Of a stretch of DNA of 32,226 nucleotides, positions 5,881 to 32,226 are shown in pieces. Origin of the DNA: Bacillota bacterium (GTDB taxonomy: Bacteria; Bacillota; Clostridia; Saccharofermentanales; UBA5734); contig JAWSUP010000003.1 in assembly GCA_033549405.1 (NCBI GenBank), positions 1-32,226 of the forward strand, given 5' to 3'. The stretch's first letter is position 1. The number at the start of each line of letters is the position of its first letter. Below the pieces are notes generated by a model. The model had not been told where the DNA came from and did not search any database. It saw nothing but the letters and a program-made list of their open reading frames with translations. Position numbers and translations under genes: made by a program.

Positions 5881-7265
5881 GCTGAATATGGCGGCGGTTC
5901 ACTGGGGATCCGACCGTCTTCTTTCTCAAAAAATAATGTGTATTTCGGCCACCAGCCGAGATGCAGGTTGCCAGTCGCACCCTGCCTGTTCTTGGCGATG
6001 ATCACCTCGGCGTCCTCAGTTTCCAGAGCAGCCTGTTCAGAATTGTAGTATTGCTCACGATACAAAAAGATAACAACATCCGCATCTTGCTCGATCGCAC
6101 CTGAATCGCGCAAATCTGAAAGCAGCGGTTTTTTGTCCGATCTCATCTCACAGGCCCGGCTGAGCTGTGAGAGGGCAATCACGGGAACAGACAGTTCTCT
6201 GGCCATAATTTTCAGCGTCCTCGAAATTTCGGAGATTTCCTGTTGCCTGCTCTCCGCACGACTCTGATTGCTGTTCATCAACTGCAAATAGTCGACAATG
6301 ACCACACCCAGCTTGTTTTCCAGTTTCAGTTGACGGCATTTTGACATCATTTCCATGACGCTGGTGCCTGAGCGGTCATCAATATAGATCGGCGCCGCAT
6401 AGAGCGGTGGCAGTGCTCGGGCAATTTTCTCCCAGTCCTCCGGCTGCAACTCGCCTGTGTTCAACAAGCGGGAATTGACCAGTGACTGGCTGCTGAGCAG
6501 GCGGTTGCTGATTTCTTCTTTGGACATCTCAAGGCTGAAAATTGCTGCAGGAACATGATGCAGTGTGGCAGCCTTCTGGGCAATGTTAAGGGCAAAAGCC
6601 GATTTTCCCATGGCCGGGCGCGCCGCGACGATAACAAGACCACCCGGGCGTAACCCGCCAAGAATCCTGTCCAGCTGGTAGTAGCCAGTCAGAACGACCT
6701 TCTGCCGCGGTTGGCCGCGAGCGATCGCCGCCAGTTCGTTGACTGTGCGGCCCATAATATCTTTGAGGCTCTCAAAGCCGCTGATATCACGGCTTTCCCG
6801 GATTTCATAAATGCGTTTGGCCGCTACATCAAGCAGCATATCGGCATCATCCGGATCGTTGTAACACAGACCGGTGATTTCTTGCATGGCGCCTATCAGG
6901 CGGCGCAGAATCGCTTTCTGCCGCACCAGATCAGCATAATGGGCAGCATTGGATACCAGTGGCGCCGCATCCGGCAGTGAACTGATATAGGAAAGGCCGC
7001 CTGCCTTCTCCAACTGTCCGCGATTTTCCAGCATATCGGTCACGGTAATGATGTCGACCGGTTTGCTGTCCAGATAAAGCGTACAAATCACATCATAGAT
7101 GAGGCGGTGCTGCGGCCGATACAAATCCTCTGTCTTCAGAATAGCCGTAATTTCCGCCAGCGGGCGTTCGCCGGACAGCGCACAGCCGAGTACAGATTGT
7201 TCGGCTTGTTGATTGCTGGGCGGGACCTTGCCTTCGATTGGTCTTTTCAGATCGTCAGGAGACAT
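5877..7265 (-). CDS. dnaB: Replicative DNA helicase (alternative start 7283)
   Basis: AEQSVLG, AARPAMGKS, FSLEM, IVDYLQL, LSQLSR, SDLRDSGAIEQDAD; TAAGGAGG RBS favours ATG 7265. Confidence 0.97.
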   Translation of the reverse strand: MSPDDLKRPIEGKVPPSNQQAEQSVLGCALSGERPLAEITAILKTEDLYRPQHRLIYDVICTLYLDSKPVDIITVTDMLENRGQLEKAGGLSYISSLPDAAPLVSNAAHYADLVRQKAILRRLIGAMQEITGLCYNDPDDADMLLDVAAKRIYEIRESRDISGFESLKDIMGRTVNELAAIARGQPRQKVVLTGYYQLDRILGGLRPGGLVIVAARPAMGKSAFALNIAQKAATLHHVPAAIFSLEMSKEEISNRLLSSQSLVNSRLLNTGELQPEDWEKIARALPPLYAAPIYIDDRSGTSVMEMMSKCRQLKLENKLGVVIVDYLQLMNSNQSRAESRQQEISEISRTLKIMARELSVPVIALSQLSRACEMRSDKKPLLSDLRDSGAIEQDADVVIFLYREQYYNSEQAALETEDAEVIIAKNRQGATGNLHLGWWPKYTLFFEKEDGRIPSEPPPYSA

Positions 7266-26677: not shown

Positions 26678-26703
26678 TTGAACAAATTCGTTCAGTTTAC
26701 GTC
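26678..26703 (+). promoter_or_regulatory. Putative ECF-sigma promoter upstream of the serpin
   Basis: TTGAAC-16 nt-CGTC, matching the AAC-N16-CGT pattern. Confidence 0.45.
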
Positions 26704-26764
26704 AAAAGTACATGAGAGCAATCACCGGACTCTTATTCATGTCCAATGTCAGGAGGATTCGATC

Positions 26765-28072
26765 ATGAGAAAAAGATTTATCTATTTATTGACCGGCCTG
26801 GTTTGCATCGGCCTCATACTATCAGGCTGTTCATTCTCGCTGTCGATAGGCAAAGACCCGACAACAGTCACCGCAAACGGCAAAAATGTCGACCTGATGG
26901 CAGATGTCAAAGCGCAGCCCTGGTCTGAAGCACCCAAGATACCGGATCTGGCATGGCTAAAGGGCATCAGCCGGTTTTCCGCCCAACTATTGCAGGAATC
27001 AATAAAAAACAGCGGCAATGTTATGATATCACCCGCATCTGTCTTTCTGGCCCTGGCTATGACGGTCAACGGGGCAGACAGCACAACCAAGGATGCCATG
27101 CTGTCTGTTCTGGCCGATCAGAACATAACCGTCGACCAGATCAATCAGATCAGTCGCGACTGGATGGCGCTTCTGGTAAAATCTGAACCCAAAACCCAGG
27201 TATCTGTTGCCAATTCAATCTGGTTCAGGGACGGGTTTGTGCCATACAAGCCATTCTTACAGAGTAATGCCGATTTTTTCAAGGCCGGCGCCAGGCAACT
27301 TGATTTTGCAGATGAGAAGGCGCCCGATATCATCAATGCCTGGGTCAAGGATGAAACCAATGATCTGATCGAAAAGATCGTCGAAAAGATCAGCCCGAGC
27401 ACGGTCATGTACCTGATCAATGCCATTTATTTCAAAGCTGACTGGATGACGCCTTTCGAAAAAAATGAAACCCGTGAACAGGAATTCAATACGCCTGCCG
27501 GAGTTGTTAAAGTCGATTTCATGCATCGGACTGGTCCTATGCAGTATTTCGTCGGTCAGCAAGTCAGCGGCGTTGCCCTTCCCTACCACAATGAGCAGTT
27601 TGCCTATTTCGCCATTTTGCCAGATGAGAGCATTGATCCGCGCACTTGGCTGAACAGCCAGGAACCCGCAGATCTTTTTGCAACCATCTCTGCCATGATG
27701 GCCCAGAAGGCCAACACGTCCATCATGCTGGCGCTGCCTCGTTATGAAGTCAGTTTCGAAGACAGTCTCATCAATGAGCTGGAGACAATGGGCATGGGCA
27801 TCGCTTTTAACGGATCCAGGGCTGATTTTTCACGACTGAACGAGTCGCGTACAAAAGGTTTGTTTATCAGTGAAGTCAAACACAAGACCGTCATTCGCGT
27901 CGATGAAAAAGGGACAGAAGCGGCAGCCGTCACATCTGTAGCCATCGACGAAAGCGCGAACTGGGCCGACATCGAGCTCAATTTTGACCGGCCGTTCATC
28001 TATGGCATCATGGATCTGAAAACGAATCTGCCCCTGTTCGTCGGGATTCTTGAAGATCCGACAGGCGATTAA
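26765..28072 (+). CDS. Serpin-family lipoprotein
   Basis: AGGAGG RBS; signal peptide with lipobox LSGC; NVMISPAS, VANSIW, INAWV..TN..I, LINAIYFKADW, EKGTEAAAVT hinge, FDRPF. Confidence 0.93.
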   Translation: MRKRFIYLLTGLVCIGLILSGCSFSLSIGKDPTTVTANGKNVDLMADVKAQPWSEAPKIPDLAWLKGISRFSAQLLQESIKNSGNVMISPASVFLALAMTVNGADSTTKDAMLSVLADQNITVDQINQISRDWMALLVKSEPKTQVSVANSIWFRDGFVPYKPFLQSNADFFKAGARQLDFADEKAPDIINAWVKDETNDLIEKIVEKISPSTVMYLINAIYFKADWMTPFEKNETREQEFNTPAGVVKVDFMHRTGPMQYFVGQQVSGVALPYHNEQFAYFAILPDESIDPRTWLNSQEPADLFATISAMMAQKANTSIMLALPRYEVSFEDSLINELETMGMGIAFNGSRADFSRLNESRTKGLFISEVKHKTVIRVDEKGTEAAAVTSVAIDESANWADIELNFDRPFIYGIMDLKTNLPLFVGILEDPTGD

Positions 28073-28089: not shown

Positions 28090-28359
28090 CTAAGGCCTAC
28101 AGAGGCTGCAGGGCGAATAACCGGCATCCAGGGCTTCTGATCTGGATTTAAAAGCGATCCTGTTCTTTGGATCCGGCAAAACGTGGCATGTCGGCAGGTG
28201 CAGTTTCATATTGCCGATATTCCCGATATACCGATCCTCATGAATGATGTCGACTTCTTCCTCTGCAGCTTTTTTCCTGCACTGCGAAAGTGCCAGAATA
28301 ACCAACCCGGCTGAGATACCGCAGATGGCCAGTAATGAACCCATGAATTTATTACGCAT
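28090..28359 (-). CDS. Small membrane-anchored protein with an Ada-like metal-binding domain
   Basis: N-terminal hydrophobic helix; YIGN..KLH.PTC...F.SR.EA..AGY.PC..C.P. Confidence 0.75.
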   Translation of the reverse strand: MRNKFMGSLLAICGISAGLVILALSQCRKKAAEEEVDIIHEDRYIGNIGNMKLHLPTCHVLPDPKNRIAFKSRSEALDAGYSPCSLCRP

Positions 28360-28584
28360 CTTCTCTTCCCTCATACATATGAATTGCTTTACAATAATAA
28401 AGCAGGCAGATACGGTTGCGTCCAAATCCTGGTCGGATCCTGGGATCTTTTCCCTGCTGTCATCATATCATGCCTGATCGGCCGATACAAACCAGCTAAT
28501 AACGTAATAACGTTCAATTCAACGGACCGGCTTATAGCCGCGTTGTGGCTTGGCCTTCCTTGGCCTTCGTTCCCGCAGTTAACC

Positions 28585-28613: not shown

Positions 28614-28700
28614 CATGGTGCGGGTGTTTGCGCAGGTTTAGGGAATGAAGTCATAATTTGCAGGATTTGCCCTGCCCGATTGATCAGAGAGGGCTACAGG

Positions 28701-29831
28701 ATGAAACACGCGGAAGACATTTTTGGCCAGTTTTTCGACAGGATTATGGAAGAGGAGAAAAACATGCAGACGGCAAACCTGATGGTTGTCGGAAAAACCG
28801 GTGTAGGCAAAAGTACCCTGATCAACAGCGTTTTCCGGGAGGACATCGCTGATACGGGTATCGGCACGCCGGTAACCCAGCATCTGCGGCGAATCACCAA
28901 AAGCGGCGTTCCTCTGACAATCTACGATACAAAAGGCCTTGAGCTGGATAAAGAGATTCAGCAGGCTATCGAAAAAGAGATTCTGAGCGAAATCGACCGG
29001 CTGAACAGATTAAATGACAAGGATAACTTCATTCACATGATCTGGTACTGCATCAACAGTGCATCCAGACGGATTGAGGAATTCGAAATCGAGTGGATTC
29101 GGACGTTTTCTGAGAAAATTCCTGTCATTGTCGTGCTGACACAATCGTTTGGCAAAGACTATAAAACTCTGGAAAAGTTTATCCAGGATTTGAACCTGCC
29201 GGTAAAGGGTGTGCGGTCGGTTTTGGCGCGCGATCTGGAGATCAGCGATGAATTTGTCCTGCCGGCCTTCGGCCTGATGGAACTGGTCGATATGACCTTC
29301 GATTGTCTGCCGGATGCGGTTCATGCTGCGTTCATCAACGCACAAAAAGTCAACATCGAAAGGAAACTCGAGTCCGCCAACAGGGCGATCCTTCCTTTTG
29401 TCACGGCTGCTTTTGCAGAGGGGTTCAATCCGCTCCTCTTTGCAGATGCTGCACTGCTGGTGCCAACCCAGTTGGGCATGCTCGCCAGACTGACGGTTTT
29501 GTTTGGTATTCCGATCAACAAATCTTTCTTAACGGCTCTTTTGTCAGGTGTTCTGGGTACTGGCGGCGCCACAGCGATCGGTCGAACCATTGTCGCCAAC
29601 ATTTTCAAGTTTGTGCCCGGCGTCGGAACACTGGCCGGCGGCGCTATCAGCGGGACAACCGCCGCCATCATTACGGCTGCCCTTGGTTTGTCCTACAACC
29701 AGGTCATGGTTACTGCTGCCCGGAAAATATATGCGGGTAAGGTCGTCACCGAAAAAGAGATGATCGAACTGATGAAGCAATCGTTTGGCGACCAGCTGAA
29801 AAAGGGCAAGAATATACTGAAAGATGATTGA
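28701..29831 (+). CDS. GTPase (MMR_HSR1/Era-like G domain) with C-terminal DUF697-like membrane region
   Basis: GKTGVGKS, G.PVT, DTKG, IHMIWYC, LTQ; NPL..ADA.LL.P.Q..M and G/A-rich helices; GAGAGG RBS before ATG 28701. Confidence 0.85.
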   Translation: MKHAEDIFGQFFDRIMEEEKNMQTANLMVVGKTGVGKSTLINSVFREDIADTGIGTPVTQHLRRITKSGVPLTIYDTKGLELDKEIQQAIEKEILSEIDRLNRLNDKDNFIHMIWYCINSASRRIEEFEIEWIRTFSEKIPVIVVLTQSFGKDYKTLEKFIQDLNLPVKGVRSVLARDLEISDEFVLPAFGLMELVDMTFDCLPDAVHAAFINAQKVNIERKLESANRAILPFVTAAFAEGFNPLLFADAALLVPTQLGMLARLTVLFGIPINKSFLTALLSGVLGTGGATAIGRTIVANIFKFVPGVGTLAGGAISGTTAAIITAALGLSYNQVMVTAARKIYAGKVVTEKEMIELMKQSFGDQLKKGKNILKDD

Positions 29832-29893
29832 CTCGCTTACACGCATGAGATCAAGGGTCGGAAGGCTGCAATATCAATATCTTAAATTAGGAA

Positions 29894-30180
29894 ATCGGGT
29901 AGGGCCCCTGCCGTTAATCAGTCGGGGGACCTTCCACACCACCATGCATACCGTTCGGTACGTTGCGGTTCCAAAACTTTACACATTCCTTTACAGAAAA
30001 CAACCAGCTAAAGTCAGATATCCTGCTTTCTTCAACAGCTCGTTTGGGATAGCTCTTGTAAGAATCCAGCTCCCGGCAACATGCCAGTAGCCGAGTCTCG
30101 AATTAGCCCATTCCTATGCTTTTTGCTCCGTTATTTATGCATTCTTTAGGTTCGCGTCTTGACCGCAAGCGCAACCTTCT
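29894..30180 (-). mobile_element. 5'-truncated, decayed group IIC intron remnant (maturase C-terminus, domains V and VI)
   Basis: Minus-strand peptide ..EQKA*EWANSRLGYWHVAGSWILTRAIPNELLKKAGYLTL; DV GAACCGCAACGTACCGAACGGTATGCATGGTGGT; DVI hairpin ending CCTACCCGAT. Confidence 0.88.
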
Positions 30181-30364
30181 GGTCAAGATGCTGGACCGGA
30201 TCTTCTTGAACCCAGCAGCTAAGATCAAAAACGTCCCGGCACCGGCTGAAGCGAAGCAGTCCAATTCGGGGGTGGCTCAATTCAAACGGCTGCGCGATGA
30301 GCGGCTGGCTCGAGAGCAGAGCAACCAGATGGAAGATCTGCTGCGGCGCGGGCGGCCTGAATGA
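30180..30364 (+). pseudogene. Possible orphan 3' fragment of a gene, ending just before the hairpin repeat
   Basis: GC-rich open frame (..AQFKRLRDERLAREQSNQMEDLLRRGRPE*) whose upstream part is intron-derived DNA; no family recognised. Confidence 0.3.
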
Positions 30365-30365
30365 T

Positions 30366-30412
30366 AACGAGGGGATCTGTACCAGAGCGGTATGGATCCC
30401 CTGCTCTGGTTT
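30366..30412 (+). repeat. Hairpin repeat copy 1 (terminator-like or possible recombination site)
   Basis: AGGGGATCTGTACC-AGAGC-GGTATGGATCCCCT, 14-bp stem with two G-T pairs; repeated at 32086. Confidence 0.88.
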
Positions 30413-30540
30413 CTCGAAACATTTTATTAATATACTTACTATATAAAAAACAATGTAATTTAGACAATTATTTAAGTATTACATCCCAAAATGCAGTATA
30501 CTAATATCAGATTTGATTTTTTTCAGGGGGGGTACCAAAC

Positions 30541-31494
30541 ATGAAGCGGCTTCTTTTCATATTATGTCTTATTGCTTTGCTTTCAATGACAACATCATGT
30601 TTTATGCCTATTAATACAAACAGCGGCGCAACGGTTAATAACGATAAAAGTTCCGGCGTAACAACCAAAACCGAATCAAATTCAAACCAGACAACATCTA
30701 CAAATAAGGTTACGACCACTAATACAACCTCAAAGCAAGAATCTGAGGCAAGCGTTGAAGAACAAATACTTATTGATCAGGATGGTATTGTAATAAAACT
30801 AAAATCACTTTCATCTGACCCCTTTTGGGGACCTTCGTTAAAGTTGCTTATTGAGAACAACCGGAAGAACTCTGTTATGATACAAACTCGAAACTCGACT
30901 GTAAATGGTGTTATGATGGAAGCAATGTTTTCGTGCGATATTGCTCCAAATAAAAAGGCGAATGAAGAGATTGTGTTTATGTCATCTGATCTTGAGGTTG
31001 CAAATATTGAGGTAATTAGGGAGATCGAGTTTTATTTTACGGTTTCTGATGCAAGTTCTTGGGAAGACATATTTGACTCTGATACTATTTATATTAAAAC
31101 ATCAGCGTTTGATACACATGTTCAAACATATGATGACAGTGGTTTTATTGCTCTTGATCAGCGTGATATCAAGTTAGTAATAAAACGATTGGATAGTGAA
31201 GATAGTTTTTGGGGTGCTGAGATTTATGTGTATCTAGAAAACAATAGCAAGCAAAACATTACTGTACAAATTGAAGACTGCTCAATTAACGGATTCATGA
31301 TCGATCCAATGTTTTCGTGCGATGTTTTGGCTGGGAAGAAAGCCTTTGACACTATAACATTAATGGAATCTGATTTAGAAGAAAACGAAATCGAAAGCAT
31401 CGATGAGATCGAATTATATTTTAATGTTTTTAACGCTGACACATGGGATGATATTTTCCAATCTGATATTGTTAAAATATCATTCAGCGAATAG
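30541..31494 (+). CDS. Hypothetical acidic lipoprotein with an S/T-rich linker and two tandem homologous domains
   Basis: Signal peptide ending TTSC; FWG..ENN..NG..MFSCD..KKA..SDLE..W.DIF.SD occurs twice; AT-rich. Confidence 0.85.
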   Translation: MKRLLFILCLIALLSMTTSCFMPINTNSGATVNNDKSSGVTTKTESNSNQTTSTNKVTTTNTTSKQESEASVEEQILIDQDGIVIKLKSLSSDPFWGPSLKLLIENNRKNSVMIQTRNSTVNGVMMEAMFSCDIAPNKKANEEIVFMSSDLEVANIEVIREIEFYFTVSDASSWEDIFDSDTIYIKTSAFDTHVQTYDDSGFIALDQRDIKLVIKRLDSEDSFWGAEIYVYLENNSKQNITVQIEDCSINGFMIDPMFSCDVLAGKKAFDTITLMESDLEENEIESIDEIELYFNVFNADTWDDIFQSDIVKISFSE

Positions 31495-31508
31495 GAGACA
31501 TAATTATT

Positions 31509-32078
31509 ATGTATTGCTCTAATTGCGGAACGAAATTTGAAGGTAAATTTTGTCCTGAATGTGGAACTCCAGCGGTGACTCAATCTTCAGGTTCACAGGA
31601 TGTTATTTACCAGCAACCTGCCCAACAGCAAATAAATCACCAACAGCCAATTCCGCTTCAACCCCTATACCTATCAATAAATCAAAACATTGTGCCGACA
31701 GCGCCACCAAAGCAAACAGGTATTAGTGTAACTAAAACAATAATTGGTATTATTTGCCTGATTATTTTTATTATAATTTTCTTGCAGTCTTGTGCCGTCG
31801 GGTGTGTTAATCTATTTGAAGAAAACACAGAAGATACAACTGCTGGTGTTGGTTTATTTGTCGCATTTTTCTATCTTGTTATTGGAATTGTGTCTACAGC
31901 TGGGCGGAGCAACCGCGGAGCGTCTTTGGCAGTTTCTATTATCAGTGCTATTACAGCTATTATTGGATTCAGTACATCGGGAACCTACGTTGATTTAATT
32001 GTATGGTCAAGCCTTTCAGTAATACTGGCAGTATTATACTTAATCTTTTTCATATTTCAGAAATCAGCCAACAGATAA
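31509..32078 (+). CDS. Zinc-ribbon-domain membrane protein
   Basis: MYCSNCG..GKFCPECG, Q/P-rich linker, about 4 TM helices; AGGAG RBS overlapping the upstream stop. Confidence 0.85.
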   Translation: MYCSNCGTKFEGKFCPECGTPAVTQSSGSQDVIYQQPAQQQINHQQPIPLQPLYLSINQNIVPTAPPKQTGISVTKTIIGIICLIIFIIIFLQSCAVGCVNLFEENTEDTTAGVGLFVAFFYLVIGIVSTAGRSNRGASLAVSIISAITAIIGFSTSGTYVDLIVWSSLSVILAVLYLIFFIFQKSANR

Positions 32079-32085
32079 TCTACTC

Positions 32086-32134
32086 AACAAGGGAAATCTG
32101 TACCAAAGCGGTATGGATCCCCTGCTTTTGATTT
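32086..32134 (+). repeat. Hairpin repeat copy 2
   Basis: aacaagggaaatctgtaccaaagcggtatggatcccctgcttttgattt. Confidence 0.88.
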
Positions 32135-32226
32135 ACTGATATAATACTTAGCAACATGAGCCTAATTCATTAGGTGATAGTATAGATAAGGATTGATTAG
32201 GATATGCCTATGCGCTATACTGATTG

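Follow-up and report, generated by a model that had tools for sequence, protein, structure and literature searches.

The end of a clostridial contig raises the question of why one and the same hairpin stands on both sides of an AT-rich pair of genes. The window analysed here is the entire contig C3 (JAWSUP010000003.1, 32,226 nt) of a metagenome-assembled genome (MAG) of a Bacillota bacterium from the order Saccharofermentanales (GCA_033549405.1; 611 contigs, 4.45 Mb), and the element in question is a two-gene module near its right-hand end that is bracketed by two direct copies of a hairpin repeat. A first-pass annotation, made from the letters alone, had read this module as part of an integron-like or REP-type (repetitive extragenic palindromic) cassette array and thereby as a candidate undescribed system, while also naming an integration that duplicated a terminator, and it is the latter suggestion that fits the evidence. 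The locus is an ordinary scar of gene gain and not a new cassette system or mechanism. We tentatively favour the reading that the repeats are diverged copies of one intrinsic-terminator-type hairpin marking the joints of a horizontally acquired insert, which would have arrived by site-specific integration and afterwards lost its integrase.

A repeat search of the window returned one two-copy family of direct repeats (30375-30412 and 32096-32133, 89% identity over 38 nt) with a spacing of 1721 nt, matching the approximately 1.72 kb reported at first pass, while gapped local alignment places the repeat at 30366-30405 against 32086-32126, with weaker similarity extending to about 30412 and 32133. 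The core comprises 31 nt with one mismatch between the copies, and beyond the repeat the similarity of the flanks does not rise above that of shuffled sequences (downstream score reached by 48 of 500 shuffles, upstream score by 200 of 500). As only three exact 20-mers recur in the 32-kb window, one of them being the repeat, a chance origin is excluded. The stem of copy 1 pairs without interruption over 14 bp, two of them G-U, around a 5-nt loop (-24.4 kcal/mol, z -3.5), whereas copy 2 is weaker, its 9 + 4 pairs being separated by an internal loop (-17.1 kcal/mol). The proposed advantage of plus-strand folding through G-T pairs is found for copy 1 (-24.4 against -20.8 kcal/mol on the minus strand), but the strands of copy 2 are equal (-17.1 and -17.0 kcal/mol). 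Every difference of copy 2 from copy 1 is a change from G/C to A/T or an extra A, and no Rfam family matches either repeat. Both copies lie just past ORF (open reading frame) stops: the stem of copy 1 begins 5 nt past the TGA at 30362-30364 of the 82-codon ORF82, and copy 2 begins 8 nt past the TAA at 32076-32078 of the second cargo gene. The first-pass annotation had described this placement correctly, but the ORF before copy 1 is a remnant and not an intact gene.

The base composition changes at the same place. GC content drops from 0.576 in ORF82 to 0.258 in the spacer at the 3' edge of copy 1, the sharp turn noted at first pass, and amounts to 0.35 and 0.38 in the two cargo genes, the genome mean being 0.513. 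That the DNA stays AT-rich past copy 2 is true of the following 39 nt (GC 0.28), but the statement rests on 93 nt in total, of which 54 are the start of a multi-copy element resembling an insertion sequence (IS). Past the GTPase gene, which is the last core gene, the contig contains only mobile or foreign DNA up to its end, arranged in the order group II intron remnant, ORF82, copy 1, two cargo genes, copy 2 and multi-copy IS-like element (Table 1).

Table 1. Positions and descriptions of the features along the window.
Feature	Position	Strand	Description
Housekeeping region	1-29831		MurC-like ligase, FtsH, TilS, DnaB, SSB, RF1, Rho, MreB, LeuRS and others, then EamA transporter, serpin, GTPase
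Group II intron remnant	29890-30140		5'-truncated 3' part (end of maturase ORF plus domains V-VI), decayed
ORF82	30116-30364	+	3' remnant of a small-terminase-like (P27-type terS) gene; homologous sequence from about 30141
Hairpin copy 1	30366-30412	+	stem 30370-30383 / 30389-30402, loop AGAGC; terminator-like by consensus scan
AT-rich spacer	30413-30540	+	128 nt, GC 0.26; G-rich ribosome-binding site before ATG
Lipoprotein gene	30541-31494	+	317 aa; signal peptide with Cys, low-complexity linker, two tandem Ig-like beta-sandwich domains
Zn-ribbon protein gene	31509-32078	+	189 aa; Zn-ribbon plus four-helix membrane protein, weak Pfam zinc-ribbon matches
Hairpin copy 2	32086-32133	+	interrupted stem 32090-32123, T-rich tail
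AT-rich flank	32134-32172		39 nt between copy 2 and the multi-copy element, GC 0.28
Multi-copy IS-like element	32173-32226	+	first 54 nt, up to the contig end

The known class that comes closest is the cis-mobilizable element (CIME), the degenerate form of an integrative element in which attL and attR persist but the integrase is gone, as described in PMC5704250. The direct repeats, some 40-47 nt long, coincide exactly with the limits of the low-GC segment, and between them lie no integration or transfer genes, only those for the lipoprotein and the Zn-ribbon membrane protein. As in a CIME, a short foreign segment without recombination genes is thus enclosed by direct repeats amid other decayed mobile DNA, and its cargo is of a type found beside integrases or att sites in intact elements. 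Unlike in that class, no cognate integrase or intact sister element was identified, 39 nt of the far flank are visible, and the repeated sequence, a hairpin following a gene remnant, is not a tRNA-gene or protein-gene 3' end.

On this basis, the resident sequence would have been the 3' end of a small-terminase-like gene together with its hairpin, situated within a decayed phage or satellite remnant past the last core gene. An AT-rich element with prophage-type cargo, comprising the lipoprotein and the Zn-ribbon membrane protein, would then have integrated at the hairpin, most likely by means of a tyrosine integrase that used the hairpin as core site, whereby the core would have been duplicated as attL (copy 1) and attR (copy 2). 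Later loss of the integrase and the remaining element would have left a CIME-type, integrase-less remnant of 1.7 kb, and both copies may now act, at most, as transcription stops for the preceding gene. Site-specific integration is favoured because the repeats enclose precisely the low-GC foreign DNA, because a genome of the same genus, G002, possesses an unoccupied hairpin, because copy 2 falls exactly at the place of the att site in a related element (locus L037), and because copy 1 and copy 2 look like mixtures of a resident version with an AT-shifted one.

In G002, positions 1436-1539 of locus L121 align with 30297-30402 of the window, that is, the 3' end of ORF82 and the hairpin, at a score reached by none of 1000 shuffles; about 89 of 106 columns are identical by hand count, compared with 73% for the neighbouring core GTPase gene. 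The locus consists of gdh on the minus strand, a spacer of approximately 140 nt, a 70-nt stretch of homology with the ORF82 end, and then the hairpin with a T7 run behind it; the homology to the window ends at the 3' edge of the hairpin, and the cargo is absent. This place beside gdh is unrelated to the locus in the window, and neither of its flanks is present in our genome. Since the loci differ and the G002 flanks are missing here, the terS-like 3' end with its hairpin is a fragment of mobile DNA, and G002 carries an unoccupied version of the hairpin site, though at another locus. With regard to terminator features, copy 1 combines a strong stem with a poor T-tract, copy 2 shows a weaker stem and a TTTTGATTT tail, and G002 a degraded stem followed by its T7 run. 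In its 5' arm and loop, copy 1 is nearer to G002 than copy 2 is, while the T-rich tail and the first ~28 nt of flank of copy 2 look more G002-like than those of copy 1; this hybrid similarity looks as attL and attR would be expected to look, its flank part not being significant. A protein search with ORF82 against five same-genus genomes returned the G002 remnant only, plus chance matches, among them an ordinary 157-aa chromosomal ORF of G007 that we take from its sequence to be a folate-pathway (HPPK-like) gene.

The relatives of the cargo genes provide a further link to integrative elements. The lipoprotein contains a Thr/Ser/Asn-rich linker and two halves that are 45% identical (E 2e-33), the mark of an internal duplication, and its AlphaFold model (mean predicted local distance difference test score, pLDDT, 84.3) comprises two tandem beta-sandwich domains resembling PDB entries of tandem Ig-like/FnIII-like proteins and, in the set of viral models, DUF4352 proteins of phages. 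The protein collection holds 415 relatives, all unnamed or designated "hypothetical" or "lipoprotein". Searched with the lipoprotein as a single sequence, the viral contigs yielded zero matches; an alignment search placed the family, which has no Pfam match, on 28 viral contigs, of which the ten with the longest matches were examined. At six of these ten loci, all on IMG/VR contigs (L165, L169-L171, L173 and L174), the lipoprotein gene immediately precedes that of a tyrosine integrase, at the prophage end and close to where the contig stops, and in three of the six (L165, L169 and L174) it is preceded by ImmA/IrrE or helix-turn-helix (HTH) regulator genes. The other four show an endolysin-like neighbour, a P63C-domain neighbour, no informative neighbour, and a match that forms part of a longer, unscanned ORF, respectively. 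At these viral loci the gene is not bracketed by repeats, a single 18-nt match being found across the ten.

For the Zn-ribbon protein, whose membrane domain (residues 73-187) matches phrog_9418 (E 1.6e-22), a set of 5.8 billion proteins contains only three relatives, and species genomes contain one close full-length relative (46% identity) in a Saccharofermentans MAG, locus L037, plus two more at 25-27%. The gene of the 46% relative closes an AT-rich element that carries an integrase, the gene order being primase-like, tyrosine integrase, DUF4352 lipoprotein, Zn-ribbon protein, tRNA-Ser. As this element ends with the Zn-ribbon gene followed by tRNA-Ser, copy 2 in the window sits at the position of its att site. 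The L037 lipoprotein is of the same structural class as that of the window but was ruled out as its homologue (E 0.09). At L037, the 5' part of tRNA-Ser(GGA) is moreover duplicated (6830-6871 and 6926-6967, 96 nt apart, a 42-nt direct repeat of 95% identity) adjoining the integrase-bearing element, a scar possibly left behind by a previous integration. Both cargo genes lack paralogues in our genome.

Several observations weigh against site-specific integration followed by integrase loss. No integrase is encoded between the repeats or on the contig, and none of the 15 Phage_integrase matches elsewhere in the genome can be linked to the hairpin site. Contigs C165, C254, C494, C170 and C203 encode tyrosine recombinases. 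The DNA past copy 2 is AT-rich and not host-like, 39 nt of it being visible before the IS-like element, and the mismatch between the copies falls into the loop, which would be the crossover spacer. The likeness of the copy 2 flank to the G002 flank is reached by 178 of 1000 shuffles, and the G002 hairpin itself is degraded (-11.7 kcal/mol, z +0.8) through non-compensatory changes, so that there is no covariation support for a conserved or selected structure. The best relatives of both cargo proteins, at 61% and 65%, apparently lie on one 2330-nt contig that falls outside the hairpin comparison. Finally, the sequencing runs, which cover the window up to 29971 plus two short, poorly matching pieces, contain no precise empty-site strain at the locus.

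The nature of ORF82 bears on the main rival explanation. Among 1.84 billion representatives, phmmer found six matches to ORF82 including itself, with P0126 being 67% identical, and the small phage proteins P0128-P0130 align to it via a C-terminal motif. P0128 and P0130 match phrog_83 (terminase small subunit), P0128 also weakly PF05119, while ORF82 itself has no Pfam or PHROG match. By its sequence, then, ORF82 is a terS-like gene remnant and not an intact gene, and together with the match of the Zn-ribbon protein to phrog_9418 it indicates phage-derived surroundings. Phage morons, as defined in PMC3594210, are independent promoter-gene-terminator units of deviant GC content. The module could accordingly be such a unit, gained with its own terminator by homologous or illegitimate recombination within a terminator shared by related phages or satellites, an origin that we consider somewhat less likely than site-specific integration. 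It resembles a moron in adding genes of deviant GC content (0.35-0.38 against 0.576 in ORF82 and 0.513 in the genome) to phage-derived DNA, in ending with a terminator-like hairpin, as PMC3594210 requires of a moron, and in encoding membrane or surface products. The hairpins lie 5-8 nt past stop codons, with plus-strand G-U pairs and, for copy 2 and G002, a T-rich tail. Homology among the two window copies and G002 is lost at the hairpin each time, with three different sequences after it and two before it.

The same features fit a moron poorly in other respects. A consensus scan detected no plus-strand sigma-70-like promoter in the 128-nt spacer, and the terminator is repeated on both sides of the unit, which lies outside the moron definition. 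In place of recognisable phage or prophage surroundings, there is a terS-like remnant before the module, an IS-like element after it and housekeeping genes elsewhere. A search with P0126 across 400 genomes of the class gave one distant intact terS, in the intact prophage L194, where the homologous gene overlaps the start of terL and no hairpin stands between them. No donor or sister element with the hairpin appears in 60 relatives or in three sequence collections, and a moron-type exchange would merely push back the origin of the first duplication.

The cassette array proposed at first pass would call for more copies of the hairpin than were found. At up to three mismatches, the 31-nt core occurs twice in the 4.45-Mb genome (reversed control: 0) and in none of the 60 relatives of the same genus, family and order, and the 24-nt core has zero exact matches in genome_contigs, metagenome_contigs and viral_contigs. 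The first-pass annotation had itself held that only two copies would speak against its proposal; BLASTN of the repeat along the genome returned just these two, as far as the fragmented assembly allows, with no further blastn-short match longer than 17 nt. A covariance model built from the two copies and run over 101 genomes gave matches with E <= 1 in nine genomes including our own. Seven matches were inspected (C18 and L118-L123), of which only L121 (G002:C87) is a true homologue; the other six are generic terminators without sequence homology, and two weaker matches, L124 (E 0.34) and L125 (E 0.68), lie outside the inspected set. A BLAST-type family search with 30111-30425 missed the G002 site; its chance matches fell in G034, which was not inspected, and G466, where the matching sequence is coding and stemless.

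An active system defined by the hairpin, whether with integron-like attC sites, with pdif-type sites served by a host recombinase, or with palindrome-associated transposable elements (PATEs) derived from IS200/IS605 and moved by an HUH transposase in trans, is therefore very improbable in our view. It would draw on the gene-sized unit between direct hairpin repeats, on the plus-strand folding preference of copy 1 and on inverted arms of 12-14 bp around a 5-7-nt spacer, which may resemble recombinase core sites. The genome also holds three Y1 transposase loci (Y1_Tnp) and the 15 tyrosine-recombinase matches, and the assembly lacks the interiors of multi-copy elements, so that a partner element could be hidden. 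The module shares with integron cassettes the imperfect palindrome behind a gene-sized unit and, in copy 1, the better folding of the strand that carries the G-T pairs. Unlike in an integron, R''/R' boxes are absent, the palindrome measures 33 nt, there are two copies and no array, and neither an integrase nor attI lies on the contig; within 60 nt of either copy, one RYYYAAC (32082) and zero GTTRRRY were found, consistent with the lack of an attC box pair already remarked upon. Within the contig, which ends 93 nt past copy 2, there is no row of cassettes, either beside intI/attI or as a cluster of attC sites lacking integron-integrases (CALIN). With two copies in the genome, the repeat falls short of the tens to hundreds of dispersed copies of REP or bacterial interspersed mosaic elements (BIMEs), and in the case of PATEs, the three Y1_Tnp loci are accompanied by no further hairpin detectable by BLAST or covariance model, multi-copy interiors being missing from the assembly. 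The earlier statement that the window holds no recombinase stands for the contig ORFs scanned against Pfam, and of the tyrosine-recombinase and HUH enzymes that it recommended looking for, those elsewhere in the genome show no link to the hairpin. The module has no terminal inverted repeats, and the sequence homologous to G002 extends leftward out of the module from copy 1 and stops at the hairpin, opposite to what the left end of an element would show. The stem is weakened in copy 2 and broken in G002 without compensatory changes, the loops differ between the copies, and relatives of the lipoprotein gene lack bracketing repeats.

A bolder variant would have the hairpin as core site of an undescribed trans-acting recombinase which, in this clostridial lineage from groundwater, would place surface-protein cargo after the final gene of phage satellites and remove it again. 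We regard this as highly unlikely. If it were true, G002 would represent the empty site and the window the loaded one, and further loaded units would have lain beyond the IS-like element, lost to fragmented assembly and composition-based binning.

The assembly deserves attention as well, since the foreign part forms the last 1.8 kb of the contig. The low-GC tail might belong to another organism and have been joined through a shared hairpin during metagenome assembly, an explanation to which we give the least credence. It is suggested by the 611 contigs and the estimated contamination of 4.78% of the MAG, by the jump in composition at the repeat and by the run reads, which cover neither repeat. 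A chimeric join at the repeat would, however, leave one copy and not two, and the longest exact run common to the copies is 20 nt, compared with contig-end overlaps of 52-54 nt, meaning that the repeat is shorter than the overlaps used by the assembler. In addition, the contig end enters the same multi-copy element as four other contigs of the bin, and AT-rich islands are common in this genome, with 88 windows of 1.5 kb below a GC content of 0.38. Matching sequence was found in three sequencing runs from groundwater and volcano metagenomes, each having a small share; they cover 29500-29971 of the window as well as the short, poorly matching stretches 30572-30605 and 31192-31247, and they show no joints. 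The MAG is fragmented, the contigs of AT-rich islands may have been lost in binning, and the interiors of repeats are absent from the assembly, so that two copies means two in the assembled sequence.

The multi-copy element at the contig end is identical over 32173-32226 to the ends of contigs C489, C168, C193 and C522, all with different flanks, which makes at least five junctions. It was not found in the 60 relatives or in metagenome_contigs, and its interior is absent from the assembly. Sequence shared between contig ends defines 37 groups in the genome, the largest comprising 16 ends, which points to a very heavy load of recently expanded insertion sequences and accounts for the 611 contigs. 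As both ends of the window contig stop in such groups, the adjacency of the element to copy 2 is not special. At 4.45 Mb, the genome is larger than those of its same-genus relatives (1.7-3.4 Mb).

On the other side of the module, the intron remnant, which lies on the minus strand, abuts the terS-like remnant and matches sequences that are multi-copy in relatives. In G018 and G019, such intron-like sequences sit at the end of a reverse transcriptase (RT)/maturase ORF and match Rfam RF00029, and in a three-way alignment the homology stops at about 29893. The copy in the window has no Rfam match at E <= 10 and is thus considered decayed. A contig of a 99%-identical strain from run X1, a groundwater metagenome, departs from the window exactly at 29894, the 3' boundary of the intron, and ends 12 nt later, so that the strains differ from there on. 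Read on the minus strand, these final 12 nt resemble a terminator end, with a G-run followed by a T-run, the type of site that class C group II introns target.

Further upstream, the product of the serpin gene (26678-28072) spans the full length of a bacterial serpin (PF00079, E 1e-92) and carries a lipoprotein-like signal at its N terminus. Its gene lies beside those of a small Ada-type Zn-binding protein (28090-28425, minus strand) and of the GTPase (28698-29831), which is of the septin/DUF697 type. Gene order near the GTPase gene is not conserved, even inside the genus. The neighbours of this gene in eight relatives map to separate contigs in our genome, and therefore no empty site can be inferred by synteny.

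What the cargo may do is suggested by its position. Ltp-type lipoproteins, which confer superinfection exclusion, are encoded in prophage lysogeny modules and expressed from the prophage, as described in PMC3952083. The integrase-adjacent members of the window lipoprotein's family likewise sit in a lysogeny module. There is no sequence relationship between the two, Ltp being a small helical protein, whereas the window lipoprotein is modelled as two beta-sandwich domains. From this position and by analogy to Ltp, a role of the lipoprotein/Zn-ribbon pair in superinfection exclusion is plausible.

If site-specific integration with subsequent loss of the integrase is correct, the locus would be a small example of a common pattern, in which accessory surface genes of prophage origin settle at chromosomal terminator hairpins, and a duplicated pair of hairpins could be used as an annotation rule for foreign cargo. 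The hairpin would gain greater importance only if it were a dedicated and repeatedly used recombination site. For phage biologists, the cargo is perhaps of modest interest as a candidate superinfection-exclusion pair, with the Ig-like lipoprotein family being a candidate for a widespread superinfection-exclusion or surface-modifying factor of Clostridia prophages.

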